NCBI GenBank assembly: GCA_947470025.1
Contig: CANIRU010000004.1
Span: forward strand, 1-56,101
DNA: 56,101 nt
DNA from: Chloroflexota bacterium
GTDB lineage: Bacteria; Chloroflexota; Dehalococcoidia; UBA2979
Direction of reading: 5' to 3'
Under the pieces are notes generated by a model. It did not search any database. It was not told the DNA's origin and saw only the letters and a program-made list of their open reading frames with translations. Shown piece after piece: positions 24,244 to 56,101 of this stretch (position 1 is its first letter; each line of letters begins with the position of its first letter). The translations under genes and the position numbers were made by a program.

Positions 24244-24858
24244 ATGATCTCGATGCAGGAGACGCCCCCGCCGTTCCACTCGCGCAGCCGGTCGCGCACA
24301 CGCCCTGCTCGACGTCGTCCGGAGCCGGACCTCGCGCCTGACCTGCAACGCATTCAGCGCCGCTTATCACGCTCCTCGATCGGGATCGCCGCTCTGATCG
24401 CCATCCTCAGCCTGACCAGCGCCGGACTGCTGCGCGCACGACAGTCGAACGACGTCATCCCACCGACTGCACCGGGCGAGGCGACCCCGGTCGAAGTCTC
24501 CCGCATCATCGATGGCGACACCCTCGACGTCCGCGCCGCCGAGACGACCATTCGCGTGCGCCTCTACGGCGTGAACGCGACCGAGCGCGGCCAGGCCTGC
24601 TATCGCGAGGCCACTGAGCGCCTGACCACCCTGGCAGGCAACCGGGTGCTGCTGCTACCCGACGCGCGCCAGACCGACCAGTACGGCCGCGAATTGCGTT
24701 ATGTCTTTACGGCCGACGGCCAGTCGATCGACGCTGCGCTCGTCCGCGATGGCCTGGCGAAGGCATGGCGCGAGGACGGCAGCCGCAAGGCGGCCCTTGT
24801 CGCCCTGGAGGATGCCGCGCGCACTTCGAAGACGGGCTGCCTCTGGAGCGGCAACTAG
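24244..24858 (+). CDS. Membrane-anchored thermonuclease (SNase family)
   Basis: TM helix then RIIDGDT, VRLYGVNATE, DQYGRELRYV, LVRDGLA, GCLW. Confidence 0.9.
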   Translation: MISMQETPPPFHSRSRSRTRPARRRPEPDLAPDLQRIQRRLSRSSIGIAALIAILSLTSAGLLRARQSNDVIPPTAPGEATPVEVSRIIDGDTLDVRAAETTIRVRLYGVNATERGQACYREATERLTTLAGNRVLLLPDARQTDQYGRELRYVFTADGQSIDAALVRDGLAKAWREDGSRKAALVALEDAARTSKTGCLWSGN

Positions 24859-30629: not shown

Positions 30630-31676
30630 CTACGGTGCCGCTGCACCGCGAGTGACAGTGACCGCGATAGCGGTAGCGAAGCCCGACGGGAACGTCTTCC
30701 GGAAGCTGTCGTTCACGAACGCCGGCGCGCCGAGTATTAGCAACACGTACTGGCCTCCCGCGCTCTGCGCCCAGACCCCGGTGGCACCCGCTTGCTTCGC
30801 CGCGACCTCGAGGTCGTCCACCGAACCGCCGTTGAAGACCACGAGGGCCAGGCCTCCCGCGCCGAACGTGGGCGGCGACGCGAAGGAGCCGCGGGCGCTG
30901 CTGCCGGGCGTCACGGGCGTCGGCGTGGGCGACGCGGGTGGGGTGGAGGTGTTCCGCATCTCGATCGCCGTCGCCGCGACGGGGCCCGATGCGGCGACTC
31001 CCGCAATTCCCGCCAGCATGTCCGTCAGCGACGCGATCTGGGACGCACCGTCGTCTGCCAGGTTCGCGACTCGAGAGATGGGAGAGCGAGCGCCGCTCGG
31101 CACCTGCGGCACACTGATGGAGCCGGAACCGCCGTAGGAACCGGTCACGGCGAACGGGCCGCGTGGACTGCTTGCGACGGTCCCGTCGTACTGGCCGTTG
31201 GCGATAGCGGTGAGCGCCCCGAGGTTATACGTGCCCTGGCCGCGATGGGTGCCAGACGCGCTCCCTCCGGTGGTCACGCCCCACTGACCGGAGCTCGTGA
31301 ACGTTCCTGAGGCGAAGGTGCCCGATGCGGTGTATGTCCCCTCGACGACGAACGCAGGGACACCGGTCGCGGTCACGGTGGCCGTGAACGGGCCGCTCGC
31401 CTGGTAACTGCCGCTGAAGCTCGCCGGGTCGAAGCCGGTGATTGCCACCGCGGCGGTAAAGGTGACCCGGGCATCGTACGTTCCGGCTCCCTGGAAGAAT
31501 CCCGCTGGAGTGTTCACGCGAGCGTCGTACGTGCCGGCCGACTTCACCGTCCCTGCGACCTGCGAGCTGCTGGGAGGGGATGCGGGCACCTGGGCATGGG
31601 CAGGTTGGCTCCCTCCCAGGGCGACTGAGGACATCGCGAAAACCAGCAGGCACAGTCTGGGCAAGCGGAATGACAT
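30630..31676 (-). CDS. Secreted G/T/S-rich protein with conserved ~81-aa C-terminal domain
   Basis: Signal peptide MSFRLPRLCLLVFAMSSVALGGSQPAHA; AGTYDARV occurs twice; P/T linker; C-domain shared with the ORFs ending at 52565 and 55680. Confidence 0.85.
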   Translation of the reverse strand: MSFRLPRLCLLVFAMSSVALGGSQPAHAQVPASPPSSSQVAGTVKSAGTYDARVNTPAGFFQGAGTYDARVTFTAAVAITGFDPASFSGSYQASGPFTATVTATGVPAFVVEGTYTASGTFASGTFTSSGQWGVTTGGSASGTHRGQGTYNLGALTAIANGQYDGTVASSPRGPFAVTGSYGGSGSISVPQVPSGARSPISRVANLADDGASQIASLTDMLAGIAGVAASGPVAATAIEMRNTSTPPASPTPTPVTPGSSARGSFASPPTFGAGGLALVVFNGGSVDDLEVAAKQAGATGVWAQSAGGQYVLLILGAPAFVNDSFRKTFPSGFATAIAVTVTRGAAAP

Positions 31677-32131
31677 GGAGGGATCCTCCGGGTGGCACGC
31701 CGAACCACGTCGAGTTGTTCGCCGCATCGGGGTTCGTAAGACGCGCGATCGAACAAGCGGATCATGACCGCTCGGTGCGGGCAGTGGACCTGCCGGAAGC
31801 CATCGGTGATGGGGGCCTTTAGTCCGTATGGCGCGAGTCCAACCGGGCCGCCGCCCGCTCGATGTCGTGACCGTGCTTGGGCACGCAAACGCCTCACCGT
31901 TCACGAGGACATCACTCGGGTCGGCGGCGGAGCCTAGCGCTTTCCGACGCCCGAGCATGCGTGCTGACCTCACTCGAGAGTTCCGCTACGCAGCCGACGC
32001 AATGCCGAGCGGTGCACAGCGCCAAACCCGCGACGAGGCTCGGGAGCGCCAGGTCGACTACGCCATCCTGATCAAGCGGATCCGCAATCCACCCACCGAC
32101 GCTCTCGTCTCGGGCCAGATCTCTTCGGAAG

Positions 32132-43400: not shown

Positions 43401-44306
43401 CTACCTCGCCACCGTCAGCACCACAAACGCCACGACCGCGAAGATCACCACTGTCAGCAGCAACACCGGGTCGCGCGCGATCAACTCGTCGGCGTTGCGT
43501 GACGGCGCACGCATCGCGGCGACGCGGTAGCGCACGAGGCCGAACGCGACCAGCGGCACGGTGACCAGCATCGCGTGGTTCGCCGGCAGGTTCGGCGCTG
43601 TCCACGTGTACATCGCGTAGGCGACCACCGTGACCAGCGCGACCACGCGCGACGCGCGCGCAGCCCCCGACTCGCCGTAGACGCGCTGCGCCGCACGATG
43701 CTCGTCCGCCTCGTCGTGCAGCAGCTGCCGCTCCTGGGCGCGCTTCACCAGCACCACGTACGCCGCGCCAAGCGCCGTGCACACGAGGATCCACGAGGAC
43801 ACCGACATGTTGATGGCCTCGGCGCCCGCGACCACGCGCAGGACGAACCCCGTCGCTACGGCCACGACATCGAGGCCCGCGAAGCGCCGCAGCACGAGCG
43901 TGTACGCCATCGTGACGAGCGCGTACGCGCCGATCGTGGTGAACAGGGGCGTGCTGACGTACACCGCGACTACGAGCGCCGCGAAGATCAGCCCAAGACC
44001 TGCCGCAATGGCGCCGTCGATCGGCAGCAGGCCGGCGGCGATCGGGCGGTCCTGCTTCGTCGGGTGCAGGCGGTCCGCGCCGGCATCGCGCGCGTCGTTG
44101 AGCAGGTACCCACCCGAGGCCGCGAGGCACAGCAGCGCGAACGCGAGCGACGCCCCACCGAACAGCCGCACCGCCAGCGCGCCGTCCGAGGGATCCCAGC
44201 CGCTGCCGGCCGAGAACAGCAAGGGCGCGAACGCGATGAGGTTCTTTTGCCACTGGCCGGGGCGCATGGAGCGCCACAGGGCGGCCCACACGTTCTGCGA
44301 CGTCAT
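43401..44306 (-). CDS. UbiA-family prenyltransferase, decaprenyl-phosphate phosphoribosyltransferase-like
   Basis: MRPGQWQKNL, YLLNDARDAGADRLHPTKQDRPIAAG, GFVLRVVAG, KRAQE; divergent from DprE1/DprE2-like genes. Confidence 0.88.
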   Translation of the reverse strand: MTSQNVWAALWRSMRPGQWQKNLIAFAPLLFSAGSGWDPSDGALAVRLFGGASLAFALLCLAASGGYLLNDARDAGADRLHPTKQDRPIAAGLLPIDGAIAAGLGLIFAALVVAVYVSTPLFTTIGAYALVTMAYTLVLRRFAGLDVVAVATGFVLRVVAGAEAINMSVSSWILVCTALGAAYVVLVKRAQERQLLHDEADEHRAAQRVYGESGAARASRVVALVTVVAYAMYTWTAPNLPANHAMLVTVPLVAFGLVRYRVAAMRAPSRNADELIARDPVLLLTVVIFAVVAFVVLTVAR

Positions 44307-44411
44307 CGGCTCTCCCGGGATCTTCGCCACGCCACGTCCCAGCGGCACGCCGAGCGTACCCCGTGACGCGACCACGCGCCGCGACCTACCGTGGAGGCAC
44401 AGGAGCACTCG

Positions 44412-45809
44412 ATGTCCACCGGCGATCCCTCGAACGGCACGCGACGCCGCCTCACCGGCTGGGGCGGCACCGCGCCATCCGTCGCCACGGTCGTCCATCC
44501 CGCGACGCGCGGCGATGCACGCGCGGCGTTCGAGGCAGCCGGGCCGCGTGGCCTGATCGCACGCGGCCTTGGGCGCGCCTACGGGGACGCCGCGCAGAAC
44601 GGGGGGGGCATGGTCCTCGCGACGGCTGGCCTCAATGGCACCGCCCTCACCGCCATCGGCCCGATCGACGGCCCCCGCGCCACGATCACCGTGGGTGGGG
44701 GCGCGAGCCTCGAGGCGATCCAGCGCGCGGTACTACGCACGGGGTGGAGCCTGCCGGTGCTCCCCGGCACCCGCCACGTCACCATCGGCGGCGCGATCGC
44801 CTCGGATGTCCACGGCAAGAACCACCACGTCGACGGCTCGTTCGGCGCGCACGTCGAGGCGTTCACGCTCCAGCCGCCAGCGGGCGATCCCATCGTCGTC
44901 ACGCGTGCGTCGGACGCCGCCCTGTTCGAGGCGACGACCGGCGGCATGGGGCTCACCGGCGTCGTGCTGGCCGCCACCTTGCGGCTGATGAAGGTGGAGA
45001 CGCGCCTGATGCGCGTCCACAACCAGCGCACCGCCGACCTCGACGCGACGATGCGCGCGCTCGTCGAGGCGGACGCCACGCACCGCTACTCCGTCGCGTG
45101 GCTCGACCTCGCATCGACACGCGCCCGCGGTCGAGGCATCGTCACCGCCGCCGACCACGCCCGCGCCGCCGAGGCACCTGCCGTCGGACTGCTCGACGAG
45201 CCGTCGTTGTGGCGGGCCACGGTGCCACCCGTCGTGCCGATGAACCTTGTGCGGCGTGCAGGCGTGTCACTGTTCAACGCGGCGTGGTTCCGCCGCCCCC
45301 TGCCGTCCGAGGCCCTCGCACCGATCGAGTCGTACATGGCGCCCCTGGACGCCCTCGGCGCATGGAACCGGCTGTACGGCCCGCGCGGCCTCGTGCAGTA
45401 CCAGTGCGCGCTGCCAGCGGGCGAGGAGGCCGTGCTGCGCGCGATCGTCGAGGCGATCACGCACGCGCCGGCGGTGCCTGCGCTCTCCGTCCTCAAGCGA
45501 TTCGGGCCGGGCAACGGCGCGCCGCTGTCCTTCCCGATCGAGGGCTGGACGCTCGCCGTCGACTTTCCGGCGGGCGACCCCGCGCTCGGCGCCTCCCTCG
45601 ATACGCTGGACGAGCACGTCGCTGCCGCGGGGGGCCGCGTGTACTTCGCAAAGGACGCGCGGATGCGGGCGGAGATGGTGCCGCTGATGTACCCGCGAAT
45701 TGACGAGTGGCGCGCGACGCAGGCGCGGATCGACCCGGCCGGCGTGCTCACGTCCGACCTCGACCGGCGCCTGCACCTGACCGCCGCCAGCACGAGGAGC
45801 GCACGATGA
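44412..45809 (+). CDS. dprE1: DprE1-like FAD oxidase (decaprenylphosphoryl-ribose 2'-oxidase)
   Basis: LTGWG, ARGLGRAYGDAAQN, PGTRHVTIGGAIASDVHGKNHH, YSVAWLD, WNRLYGPRG..QYQ, GWTLAVDFP, GGRVYFAKD. Confidence 0.88.
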   Translation: MSTGDPSNGTRRRLTGWGGTAPSVATVVHPATRGDARAAFEAAGPRGLIARGLGRAYGDAAQNGGGMVLATAGLNGTALTAIGPIDGPRATITVGGGASLEAIQRAVLRTGWSLPVLPGTRHVTIGGAIASDVHGKNHHVDGSFGAHVEAFTLQPPAGDPIVVTRASDAALFEATTGGMGLTGVVLAATLRLMKVETRLMRVHNQRTADLDATMRALVEADATHRYSVAWLDLASTRARGRGIVTAADHARAAEAPAVGLLDEPSLWRATVPPVVPMNLVRRAGVSLFNAAWFRRPLPSEALAPIESYMAPLDALGAWNRLYGPRGLVQYQCALPAGEEAVLRAIVEAITHAPAVPALSVLKRFGPGNGAPLSFPIEGWTLAVDFPAGDPALGASLDTLDEHVAAAGGRVYFAKDARMRAEMVPLMYPRIDEWRATQARIDPAGVLTSDLDRRLHLTAASTRSAR

Positions 45810-52564: not shown

Positions 52565-54082
52565 CTAACTGCGCGTCACCGTGACACCGGTCACCGTCGT
52601 GAACCCGACGGGGAACGCTGCCTCGAACGCCGACCGCAGGAAGGCGGGGGCGCCCACGATCAGCAGACGGAACGCACCGGTGCTGTCCTGCACCCACGCG
52701 CCCGTGCCGCCGGCGGCGCTGGTCGCCGCGTCGAGCTGAGCGACCGTGCCGCCGGTGAAGACGACCTGCGCCATCTTGCCGCTGCCGAAGTTCGGCGGCG
52801 ACGAGAAGGTGCCGGTGCCCGTGCCAGCGGTCAGTGCGAGGCCCGGCGGCAGGACGAATCCGCCCGGCTCGAACGTCACGGTCTGAGACGTCATCGCCCC
52901 GTTCACCGAGAACGAGATGACGTCGCCGGTCGCAGCTGTGAGCGCCGGGATGTCGAGGACCCAGTTGCCGCCGCTGTCGGCCATTGCCGTGGCGACCGTC
53001 ATTCCATGGTTGAGCGCGAGCACCGTTTCCCCCGCAGTCAGGCCTGAGCCGTACGCCTGGTACGGCAGCAGGTCAGTCCCCGTCGTCGGGCCCGTGCCCA
53101 CGACCAGCGAGTAGGTGCCATTGCCGCCCGACTGCCACGTCGCGGCGGGCGTCGCGACGGCGGTGTTGCCGCCAACCGTGAACCCGACTGTCGCCCCCGC
53201 AGTGGGAGCGCACGAGGCCGTCGAAACGATCGAGAGCGACCACATGCCCGCGTTGCTGACCGTCGCGGAGGCGCAGACGGTCCCATTGATGTACGCGGCG
53301 ACCAGGCTACCGCTGGTCAGTCCGCCGCCGGAGAAGGACGCCGTACCATTCGTGGACGTCGTCCCGGTGATCGGCGTCAGCGTGTATCCGTACGTGTCCA
53401 GCGGCAGCCCTCGCGGACGCCACTCCGCCGTGGGCGATGCCGTCGCCGGCACACCGTTGAGCGTGAACGCCACGGGCGAGCCCGGCTGCGGACGGCAGCG
53501 CGCGTCGGCGCGAATCAGGATCGACCACTGCCCGGACCGGCTCGCGATCGTCGTGCCGCACAGCAGGCCGTTGATGTACGCGCTGACTCGATCGCCGCGG
53601 TTCAAGGACTGACCGTAGAAGTAGTCCTGGAACGAACGGTGGTCGTTGTCGTACTTGCGCCGGTTGTCGTCCCACCGATCGTCCTTCGGCTTCGGAGTCG
53701 GAGTCGGCGTGGCGGTGGGGGCCGGAGTCGGGGCCGGGGTCGGCGTCACGACGACGTTGGTCACGTTGATCGACAGCGACTTCATCGCCACGTGGTAACC
53801 GCCGTCAGACAGCAGCACCACGAAATTGTACGTACCGGTCGCGCTCGGTGTGCCTTCGATGAGGCCCGTCGAGGTGTTCAGCGAGAGGTCCGGCGGCAGT
53901 ACGCCTGAAGAGATCGACCAGCTGTACGGGGCGACGCCGCCGATCACGCCCAGCGTCTGGGAGTACGCAACCGTCTTCACGCCACCGGGCAGCGAGTTCG
54001 TCGAGACGACCAGCGTCGCGGCAGCGGTGATGTTCAGCGGGTAGGTCGCCGTCGCCGTGTGCGACGCGGAGTCCGCCACCAA
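52565..54082 (-). pseudogene. 5'-truncated cell-surface protein: putative Ig (He_PIG-like) domain, P/T linker, three beta-modules, conserved C-terminal domain
   Basis: Begins mid-Ig with no signal peptide or RBS; GGVAPYSWSISSGVLPPDLSLN..GLIEGTP; PTPAPTPAPTATPTPTP; shared C-domain. Confidence 0.8.
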
Positions 54083-54833
54083 CCCGCACCGCCTGGCCGA
54101 TGCCGCTCAGCACGCCGTGGTACGCGAAGAGCTCCGACTTCCGGAACGGCTGGGCCTGCCGCAGATCCTCGAACTGGATCGGGTGGTTGCTCGCGATCGC
54201 GAGATCCGCGAACGACCCGGTGCGCGGTCCGATCTTCCAAAGCGCGAGGAACTCCTCGTCCCACCCACGCCCGGTGACCTGGCCGAGGTAACTCGACCCC
54301 ACCTCGATACGCATGCTGCGAGTCAGCGGCACGTCCAGGAGCCGTTCCAGCGCCGCCAGCGCCTCCTCGAACAACTCGTCGATGGGCGAGTCGGTCAGCG
54401 CTCGGTTGGCGATGCGGCGCAGCGCCTGCTGGCGCTCGGCCAGCTCCTGCGCGCGGGTCTCGCTGGCACGCAGGGCTTTGACGTCGATCACTGTCGCCGA
54501 CACGCCGATGACCGTGTCCTGGACGCGGACCGGGAACCAGTACACGTGGAACCCGCGAAGCCGTCCACCATCCTCCGGGTCAGGCAGCGACATGTCGAAG
54601 TCCGACGCCTCGCCGGCGAGGACCTCGGCGAACCGTTCCGCGACCAGCGGCCACACCTGGGGCCAGAGGTCGGCAACGGTGCGCCCGAGCTGCTCCTGCA
54701 TGGAGTGCTTGTTCATCGCCACGAAGCCGTCGCTGGCGAACATGAGACGCGCGCTCGTGTCGAGCAGCGCAAGGCCGACCCCTTGCGCAGGGTCAGGCAA
54801 CGAACGATCGGCCGCAGGCAACTGGCCGGTCAT
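54083..54833 (-). pseudogene. 3'-truncated PAS-GAF sensor protein
   Basis: PAS (GLALLD..LGRTVADLWP..YWFPVR..VIGVSATVIDV), coiled coil ELAERQQAL, GAF (HPIQFEDL..YHGVLSGIGQAVRVGG); frame then degrades with no output domain. Confidence 0.75.
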
Positions 54834-55053
54834 AGACGCTCCGGGGATCGGTGGTCGGTCTCCGTGTGCCGGCATCATGCTCGACGGCGGCACCGCATAT
54901 CTATTGCATGATGCAGGACGCCGCAACGTTTTCGTGATCTGCGCGTTCGCGCCGGCCCATCGGTATTCCCGCATACCATGGGCGGGCCAGACGCCACCCC
55001 GAGGCCACCACCCGAGCGGACGCGGTGGTCGCGAGGAGCGCCGGGGCGGGACG

Positions 55054-55659
55054 CTACGTCTCGACGGGTGCCTCGGTCGTGACCTCGAGGCCGACGAAGG
55101 CGCGGCCGCGCGGACTGAGCCGGTAGCCGACGTCAAGGCTCTCCGTCAGGCCCAGCGCCTTGAGTCGCCGCACGTCCGCCTTGAACCGCACCAGTTCGCG
55201 GTCGAAGCGCTCCGCGAGGTCGGCGGCGCGGGTGCCCTCGTGCTCCGCGATCGTGCGCAGCAGTTCCATCGTCCATGCACCGCGTCCGCCGCCGTCCATC
55301 CGCGCCAGGCCGGACGCGATCGTCGCGCGGTCCTCGTCGCTCAGCGCGCCGTCCGCGGCCAGCAGCGCACGCTCGTCCCGCACGTCGCCGCGGTAGCGGA
55401 ACCCGATACGGTAGAGGTCACCCTCGAACCCGTCGAGGTCTTCCAGCAGCTCGTTCGCGGAGTCGTAGCCCGCGGCGATCGCGTCCGCATCGTCGAGCTG
55501 GGACGGCGCGATCACCTCAACCTCGGTCGCTTCGACGAAGCCTCCCGTGTACAGACGGTAGATGCCGCCCGTGCGCGCCTGCGGGCGCTTCCACCGACGG
55601 ACGGTGAGCGTGATCAGGCCGCGGCGGATCGGCTCGTGGAACTGTTCGGCAAAGAGCAT
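55054..55659 (-). CDS. ASCH-like domain plus C-terminal winged-helix protein
   Basis: IRRGLITLTVRRWKRP, LDDADAIAAGY, LYRIGF; then RAADLA..FKADVRRLKALGLTESLDVGYRLSPRG; TACACT 6 nt before ATG. Confidence 0.75.
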   Translation of the reverse strand: MLFAEQFHEPIRRGLITLTVRRWKRPQARTGGIYRLYTGGFVEATEVEVIAPSQLDDADAIAAGYDSANELLEDLDGFEGDLYRIGFRYRGDVRDERALLAADGALSDEDRATIASGLARMDGGGRGAWTMELLRTIAEHEGTRAADLAERFDRELVRFKADVRRLKALGLTESLDVGYRLSPRGRAFVGLEVTTEAPVET

Positions 55660-55679: not shown

Positions 55680-56101
55680 CTACCGGACCAGCGTCACGGC
55701 GGTGTTCGCGGCGATGCCCGCCGCGAACTTCGTGCGGAACGGCTCGTTCACGAACGTCGGGCCGTTCACCACGAACAGCAGGAACGCGCCCGATGAATCC
55801 TGGGCCCACACGCCCTTCGCCTCGCCGGCCTGCGCTGCGGCCTCGAGCTGCGCGACGGAGCCGCCGCCGTACACGACGAGCGCCATGCTGCCGGTGCCGA
55901 ACCGGGGCGACGTCACGAACGCGCCCGTCCCAGTCGCCGGCACTGGCGCCAGGGATGTCGAGGTGGGTGTGGCGGAGAACATCCCGACGAGGGTCCCGCA
56001 GGCGCTGTCGTTCCCCTGCGCGACGAACGACCCGCCCACGGCGGTCGGCGCGCTGACGACGGCCACGCTCCCGGTTGCGATCGACTTCGCGAGGTACGTC
56101 C
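55680..56101 (-). CDS. C-terminal part of a protein with the conserved ~81-aa C-terminal domain (runs off the window)
   Basis: Frame stays open to the window end (..TYLAKSIATGSVAVV..); ends GAFVTSPRFG..GVWAQD..AVTLVR. Confidence 0.8.
   Translation of the reverse strand, partial: TYLAKSIATGSVAVVSAPTAVGGSFVAQGNDSACGTLVGMFSATPTSTSLAPVPATGTGAFVTSPRFGTGSMALVVYGGGSVAQLEAAAQAGEAKGVWAQDSSGAFLLFVVNGPTFVNEPFRTKFAAGIAANTAVTLVR

Follow-up and report, generated by a model that had tools for sequence, protein, structure and literature searches.

What does a small domain do when three otherwise unrelated proteins, encoded within a single stretch of DNA, all end in it? The stretch (the window, 56,101 nucleotides in full) covers positions 1 to 56,101 of contig CANIRU010000004.1, assembly GCA_947470025.1, from a Chloroflexota bacterium of the class Dehalococcoidia (UBA2979), and the domain, of about 81-86 residues, closes three minus-strand open reading frames (ORFs), here called A, B and C. 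From the letters alone, the original prediction had read it as a new module that attaches diverse proteins to the cell surface or is recognised by a sorting machine. We find that the domain defines a real family under conservation, which in the genomes we searched turns up only in Dehalococcoidia that bear peptidoglycan; its most plausible function is anchoring in the cell envelope. The three ORFs and their domain copies are as follows.

30630-31973, minus strand: ORF A as given in the ORF list.
30630..31676, minus strand: probable expressed form of ORF A, 348 residues (ORF list, ATG with GGAGGA, match to P0153).
About 31590-31676, minus strand: putative signal peptide of ORF A.
30633..30890, minus strand: domain copy 1, 86 residues, C-terminus of ORF A, the last four residues being a GAAAP-type tail (motif position; three-copy profile E 2.2e-44; AlphaFold2 confidence, pLDDT, 94.7).
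52565-54082, minus strand, frame open to 54106: ORF B (ORF list, Pfam, alignment to P0083).
52568..52813, minus strand: domain copy 2, 82 residues, C-terminus of ORF B (alignment, profile, BLASTP).
55680..56099, minus strand: ORF C, last 139 residues only, 5' open (ORF list).
55683..55925, minus strand: domain copy 3, 81 residues, C-terminus of ORF C (alignment, profile, BLASTP).

The three copies align without a gap inside the domain and share 27 invariant columns, and the motif G.F...P.F is found exactly where each copy had been proposed to start (30890, 52813 and 55925). Over the aligned stretches, the other two copies are 49% and 45% identical to copy 1; pairwise BLASTP matches copy 1 to copy 2 at E 4e-24, with 35/68 identities in the segment it reports, and to copy 3 at E 2e-26 (39/81 identical). 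The passenger parts of ORFs A and B show no relationship by BLASTP (best E 0.19), in agreement with the claim that the N-terminal contents are unrelated, and the P/T/G-rich linker said to precede each copy can be seen by eye in all three (TSTPPASPTPTPVTPGSSAR, PPGLALTAGTGT, SATPTSTSLAPVPATGT). ORF A, the complete copy, likely starts at the ATG at 31676, giving 348 residues: GGAGGA sits 8 nucleotides upstream of this codon, and the first 60 residues are identical to those of a called protein of the same length, P0153. Its N-terminus (MSFRLPRLCLLVFAMSSVALGGSQPAHAQ) resembles a signal peptide, as had been proposed, and is followed by an unannotated passenger rich in G, T and S, a P/T linker and the domain; a Pfam scan of ORF A gave no significant match. 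ORF B comprises one He_PIG Ig-like domain (Pfam E 9.2e-10), three copies of a second unannotated repeat and then the domain, and ORF C is cut off where the contig, and with it the window, ends.

We then looked at the size and range of the family. The organism's own genome (2.17 Mb in 152 contigs, 80% complete) contains 20 places matched by a profile of the three window copies (A1), at E 1e-47 to 8e-9, and a broader profile of 170 copies, 19 from this genome and 151 from other organisms, recovers the same 20; the window copies themselves score E 1e-44 to 1e-47 with A1 and 1e-33 to 1e-35 with the broader profile. Across the 19 own-genome copies, five columns are invariant and five more are nearly so. 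Of the 1.84 billion cluster representatives searched exhaustively with HMMER, 733 reach E ≤ 1e-3; the count falls to 368 at ≤ 1e-10 and to 6 at ≤ 1e-30. Within the order, the domain is present in 82 of 99 genomes (its own included), in 45 of the 48 high-quality genomes and in 19 of 21 genera, and the misses fall almost entirely in four small-genome genera (0/4, 0/3, 1/8 and 1/4 positive). A sample of the class yielded 33 positive genomes out of 401, all within three families (24/25, 6/25 and 2/25), and among 400 further genomes sampled from the phylum the domain is absent from every one. One relative's genome has at least 54 matches (54 of 104 candidates scored). The larger, lineage-restricted family foreseen by the original prediction therefore exists. 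Copy 1 alone, used as query, found no relative among genome contigs. The window stretch, or part of it, occurs in 20 DNA runs, all labelled freshwater or lake water metagenomes; no RNA run holding it appears among the 21 runs listed.

Has this family been described under another name? Neither Pfam nor NCBIfam places a match on the domain in the three window proteins (Pfam at E ≤ 1), and 19 isolated copies compared with Pfam at E ≤ 10 gave just two single-member matches at chance level (E 0.06-0.07). At E ≤ 1e-5, no Pfam family was placed on the domain in 149 representatives (150 minus one dropped for size), and hmmsearch against PDB sequences had as its best result a designed protein matched over 34 residues (E 0.0054). 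Public sources name the carriers 'hypothetical protein' or by their passenger alone; a full-text literature search surfaced no description of the domain, an absence that is no proof of its being unpublished. The known wall- and partner-binding modules are likewise missing from it: SLH (PF00395) has no match in the own genome, at its 80% completeness, or on the 19 isolated copies at E ≤ 10, SPOR (PF05036) matches none of the 19 at the same threshold, dockerin, cohesin, CWB2, PG_binding_1 and PPC have no profile match on isolated copies, and LysM (PF01476) is detected solely as a separate downstream domain. This is an undescribed family, perhaps with a new fold, and its job is most likely a familiar one.

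An AlphaFold2 model of the domain from a 19-row alignment has a pLDDT of 94.7 and a predicted template-modelling score (pTM) of 0.85, with secondary-structure elements in the order β-α-β-β-α-β and with the short N-terminal segment that bears the G.F...P.F motif also modelled at high confidence. Foldseek found no solved structure at E ≤ 1e-3 for this model or for an independent one, described below, of a second subfamily. VIA-align against 48,161 chains gave best Z scores of 4.1 and 4.3 for the two models, respectively, and a second look among the Foldseek top 1000 reached 3.3. By the tool's own account, a model lacking any clear match will usually still score Z 7-8, so the domain is unusually isolated in fold space, although a weak fold match does not prove a new fold. 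Likenesses to the RCK/TrkA C-terminal subdomain (Z about 4, root-mean-square deviation 2.7 over 57-58 residues) and to the Y-family polymerase little finger were considered and set aside as within the tool's noise, and look-alikes in the ESM Atlas (best 0.83-0.86) belong to unnamed hypothetical clusters with no usable named match. SPOR, a peptidoglycan-binding module of about 70 residues, has the same β-α-β-β-α-β order, but differs in lacking any profile match to the domain; SPOR structures are absent from the best 50 rows for either model, as are CWB2 and other wall-binding structures, an absence that excludes nothing. The models suggest a small (about 65-85 residues) autonomous extracellular α/β unit.

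Because a sorting signal and a portable module differ in where they may stand, we counted placements. In the own genome, read as stop-to-stop frames, no more than 10 residues separate 14 of the 20 copies from the end of the frame. Of the remaining six, two sit directly behind a signal peptide and before an enzyme (a pyrroloquinoline quinone (PQQ) sugar dehydrogenase, GSDH, and an alginate lyase), two are internal and followed by LysM (C17 and C1:48708), one is trailed by just a 34-residue Pro-rich tail, and one weak copy lies between SH3_3 and an S11 carboxypeptidase. The best 150 representatives contain 160 copies: 95 stand at the C-terminus, 37 come right after an N-terminal signal peptide, 17 make up roughly the whole protein and 11 are internal, and tandem runs reach five copies. 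Of the 112 C-terminal or stand-alone representatives, 73 stop precisely at the final residue of the domain, which is R or K in 86 of the 112.

The carriers appear to be exported. By eye, 17 of the 20 own-genome carriers have a signal-peptide-like N-terminus, the rest being one 5'-open frame, one truncated frame and one with none; of 140 representatives with an initial M, 89 pass a crude hydrophobic-stretch test, compared with 4 of 20 housekeeping control frames from the window, and most of those that fail look like fragments starting inside an extracellular domain. One apparent exception, P0141, a 168-residue DEAD-box fragment with a domain match at its end, is probably a chimeric or partial gene call. 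The expectation of a mostly C-terminal domain on mostly signal-peptide-bearing proteins is therefore borne out, and a modular domain on unrelated secreted proteins stands; the more specific idea of a dedicated C-terminal sorting tag does not, given that 48 of the 160 copies are N-terminal or internal and that tandem pairs occur inside giant proteins elsewhere.

A signal handled by a dedicated machine, in the manner of LPXTG and sortase, PEP-CTERM and exosortase or the type IX C-terminal domain, would fit the majority of C-terminal copies and the tendency of proteins to stop, usually with R or K, at the domain's last residue. As in those systems, a shared C-terminal element occurs on unrelated secreted proteins of one lineage, and the own genome encodes three sortases beside three transpeptidase penicillin-binding proteins (PBPs), a Gram-positive-type toolkit. 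Those signals, however, are strictly C-terminal and are removed or processed, whereas the new domain also occurs N-terminally, internally, in tandem and by itself; LPXTG and PEP-CTERM proteins end in a short motif, a hydrophobic helix and a basic tail, whereas the carriers end at the domain's last β-strand, in a confidently folded globular unit with neither a transmembrane helix nor an LPXTG-like motif. No such motif occurs in the last 60 residues of any carrier protein collected, and a rough LPXTG pattern run over all own-genome frames gave 7 matches, all membrane-protein-like, with no convincing substrate among them. In addition, those portions of PMC10284905 that deal with the envelope describe cultured Tepidiforma, a relative, as having a membrane along with peptidoglycan and an S-layer, but no outer membrane, so a step of outer-membrane translocation would not be needed. 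Free placement along the protein, a globular fold modelled with confidence and a missing hydrophobic tail together exclude a cleavable C-terminal signal, and we regard machine-processed sorting in general as highly improbable.

What, then, do the carriers have in common? P/T/A-rich linkers join the domain to many unrelated exported passengers, which include proteases and wall hydrolases (Matrixin M10, Trypsin/Trypsin_2 with or without Kelch, M23 with PKD, and S11 DD-carboxypeptidase), other enzymes and domains (SNase, CAP, GH10, alginate lyase, the PQQ sugar dehydrogenase GSDH, chagasin inhibitor and Excalibur) and Ig-like or repeat proteins (TIG, Big_1, He_PIG and Calx-beta), together with many passengers that have no Pfam family. 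A search for a known anchor in place of the domain on homologous passengers gave results too loose to use; among the matches listed, the Trypsin+Kelch architecture was limited to the closest 13, and the other 107, generic Kelch proteins, ended in a variety of ways (one bears SLH, and the source of another labels it MYXO-CTERM). The carrier that combines M23 and PKD (G000:C1:54426-56598) directly adjoins a large PBP transpeptidase frame. P0145 of a relative has SNase fused behind the new domain; the SNase-domain ORF of the window itself (24244-24855, plus strand, 204 residues) contains no copy by profile search.

Several of these passengers scavenge nutrients (GH10, alginate lyase, SNase and the proteases), and the domain might accordingly bind substrates or particles, in the way of a carbohydrate-binding module (CBM) or an adhesive module that brings secreted enzymes and adhesins to polymers in the surroundings, to detritus or to other cells, and not to the wall of the producer itself. 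Secreted stand-alone copies would suit this role, as would a second, tandem form of the domain. Outside the window's genus, most genome matches span only profile positions of about 19-86, and in the five loci examined (L148-L152) the copies come in tandem, either as pairs or as four plus two, with about 30 residues between them; the frames around them reach 3,467 residues within the retrieved DNA, and open frames of up to 8,473 residues appear in the genome search. These giant proteins are rich in fn3, cadherin and SWM repeats, as is typical of adhesins, and some end in LysM; a cassette of a β-propeller, Cadherin-like (PF12733) and two Cys-bearing copies recurs in them. Neither the G.F...P.F segment nor the W.Q of strand 2 is present in the tandem copies, which have two nearly invariant cysteines (CLRG ... 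ACA), a likely disulfide that would accord with an extracellular location. Their model, built from 18 sequences of other genera (pLDDT 95.2), has the same β-α-β-β-α-β order, and profile-profile comparison joins the terminal (A2) and tandem (A3) subfamilies with a probability of 98.8% (E 1.1e-16, 70 columns) around the shared core ..VVF.GG(S/T)V..L..A... / ..G.(F/Y)..(L/Y)(I/V).G(A/G)P.F(V/L)N..F...F..G... Genome contigs yielded 100 confirmed tandem-subfamily relatives; the best 80, which were listed, come from metagenome-assembled genomes (MAGs) titled Dehalococcoidia, Tepidiformaceae or Chloroflexi, except that one listed copy (L210) lies on a contig of a MAG titled Gammaproteobacteria, likely a binning error. 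Yet the majority of passengers are not glycoside hydrolases, proteins that remodel the cell's own wall (M23, S11 and SH3b-bearing) carry the domain too, and neither an aromatic platform nor any CBM family was detected on isolated copies. Binding to outside substrates would also leave the Ig-repeat carriers without any link to the cell. On this evidence we consider a substrate-binding role unlikely.

Stand-alone copies bear on a second alternative as well, in which the domain, dockerin-like or self-associating, docks its carriers onto a partner or lattice, such as the S-layer or a small stand-alone protein, to form a surface assembly. The best-scoring copy (L023, G000:C3:10927-11397) consists only of a signal peptide, the domain and a Pro-rich tail, about 155 residues in total, and frames of equal size occur in relatives; such conserved proteins could be the lattice or the partner. 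Around this copy, inspection of the ORFs of contig C3 revealed no genes with an obvious envelope role. Tandem pairs and a hydrophobic composition low in charge (net charge -0.16 ± 1.7 over 170 copies) would also suit docking, and the envelope portions of PMC10284905 mention unexplained protein complexes on the Tepidiforma S-layer. A complex prediction of two domain copies scored 0.01, which is uninformative both ways. With no dockerin, cohesin or SLH signature found and no partner identified, docking of this kind seems distinctly unlikely to us.

The domain could, finally, be a structural spacer or stalk, or a folding unit or pro-domain, with no binding role of its own. Some proteins do place it between the passenger and LysM (a long tail behind the domain holds LysM in C17 and C1:48708 of the own genome, in P0080 and, judged by eye, in P0112), it is repeated inside giant proteins, and proteases, a class in which accessory pro- or C-terminal domains are frequent, are numerous among the carriers. 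A spacer, though, would hardly be attached, N- or C-terminally, to non-enzymes and to so many unrelated kinds of enzyme, nor occur as a stand-alone protein, and conservation across 80 residues exceeds what spacing needs; we give such a role only a slim chance.

The reading we favour is that the domain tethers its carriers non-covalently to the cell envelope, in the way that SLH, CWB2 or LysM modules do but with no kinship to them, an argument by analogy to which we attach somewhat less than an even chance. Under this proposal, the carrier protein would be exported by Sec, and the domain would fold beyond the membrane as a non-catalytic binding module, keeping its passenger (a protease, wall hydrolase, nuclease or Ig-repeat adhesin) non-covalently on the cell envelope; the likely target would be the peptidoglycan layer, a wall-associated polymer or the S-layer, and the domain might act alone or jointly with LysM or SH3b. 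Tethering is favoured because the domain is the sole shared non-passenger element on carriers otherwise without means of cell retention (on Ig-repeat carriers, the TIG x5 protein among them, nothing else is recognisable as a retention device) and because, like SLH and CWB2, it occupies either end, set off by flexible linkers. It is also repeatedly joined to LysM and SH3b, occurring on 3 of 5 SH3_3 frames and 2 of 6 LysM frames of the own genome, and in that genome it outnumbers each recognised wall-binding module, with 20 frames compared with 6 for LysM, 5 for SH3_3 and none for PG_binding_1 or SLH. Its narrow lineage range, moreover, would suit a lineage-specific ligand. The extracellular types of passenger, the Gram-positive-type toolkit of the genome, the Tepidiforma envelope noted above and the cysteine pair of the tandem subfamily also speak for this reading.

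Each of these analogues resembles the domain in deployment and differs from it in build. SLH is a non-catalytic module found at either end of unrelated exported proteins, which it tethers non-covalently to the wall, with many copies per genome; the new domain is likewise multi-copy and at either end of many carriers, but SLH is helical and usually comes in threes, whereas the new domain is α/β and usually single in the window's genus. The CWB2 module of Clostridioides, shared by about 20-30 surface proteins per genome and placed N- or C-terminally to varied passengers, shows the same multi-carrier terminal pattern; it acts, however, as a triplet, whereas the new domain is mostly single and lacks a Pfam match. 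LysM, too, is a small wall-binding module on hydrolases and surface proteins and co-occurs with the new domain in the same proteins, but it is always detected apart from it and has another length and order of secondary structure.

Several observations weigh against tethering. PBPs are present in 99 of 99 genomes of the order, carriers and non-carriers alike, and therefore also in 17 genomes without the domain, so peptidoglycan alone does not predict it and cells manage without it. The conserved proteins of about 155 residues (L023 and relatives) would be anchors without a passenger, which needs another explanation; the tandem cores in giant fn3/cadherin proteins fit adhesion or spacing equally well; and fusion to LysM or SH3b could equally signal that the domain itself has a role other than wall binding. 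The domain is almost uncharged, and neither model matches a solved fold, so the structure hints at no ligand. Wall-binding modules might also be expected in phage lysins, and tblastn of 50,697 phage records found no domain match, nor did viral contigs yield relatives with the narrower alignments A3 or A4; this absence counts only weakly, since few phages of such hosts are known.

If the domain does bind the envelope, what might it recognise there? Peptidoglycan has been reconstructed as ancestral for the basal orders of the class, according to the parts of PMC10284905 that treat its history. Within the window, a UbiA-family prenyltransferase frame (43404-44732, minus strand) overlaps a FAD_binding_4 oxidase frame (44367-45806, plus strand) by about 370 nucleotides. 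We take this pairing to resemble the genes for decaprenyl-phosphoribose/arabinose wall sugars and, if so, it could bear on a wall polymer. A bolder version of the tethering proposal, in which Dehalococcoidia with peptidoglycan display their surface proteins chiefly through this domain, a new fold that would anchor them non-covalently and recognise a lineage-specific wall polymer or the S-layer, we consider doubtful, though worth stating.

Two further features of the window concern ORF B.

52814-53701, minus strand: second unannotated repeat, three copies in ORF B.
53805-55136, minus strand: PAS-domain ORF, its tail overlapping the 5' end of ORF B in another frame.

ORF B has no signal peptide and lacks about 190 first residues relative to a full-length homologue of 685 residues, P0083, with which it aligns over residues 191-685 (58% identity, E 1e-172), and the last ~100 residues of the PAS-domain ORF resemble out-of-frame R-rich sequence. 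ORF B is either a 5'-truncated gene or an assembly join; a deletion, a pseudogene or a mis-join could lie behind it. The second repeat (~85-95 residues, pattern ..YG.G...G..V.A..NG....T....G.W...I......GD.I.F.VNG..; BLASTP E 4e-14) has no Pfam match and occurs once each in two small secreted proteins (G000:C145:215-952 and 1027-2091), both of which also end in the new domain.

Lakes, soils and sediments abound in Dehalococcoidia other than organohalide respirers; almost none of these have been cultured, and how their surfaces are organised is barely known. In the lineages studied here, one undescribed module marks a large share of the exported proteins, and defining its family improves the annotation of hundreds of hypothetical proteins. 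Were it merely a spacer or an adhesive repeat, it would be an ordinary new domain of unknown function. As a tether, it may add a new fold to the surface-tethering modules, and a fusion of the domain to a reporter would be a concrete reagent for probing the envelopes of these organisms. If it is indeed their principal anchor, a single ligand would organise the whole exoproteome, from proteases, wall hydrolases and nucleases to giant adhesins, and the domain would provide both a portable display tag and a handle with which to label or capture these freshwater and soil bacteria.

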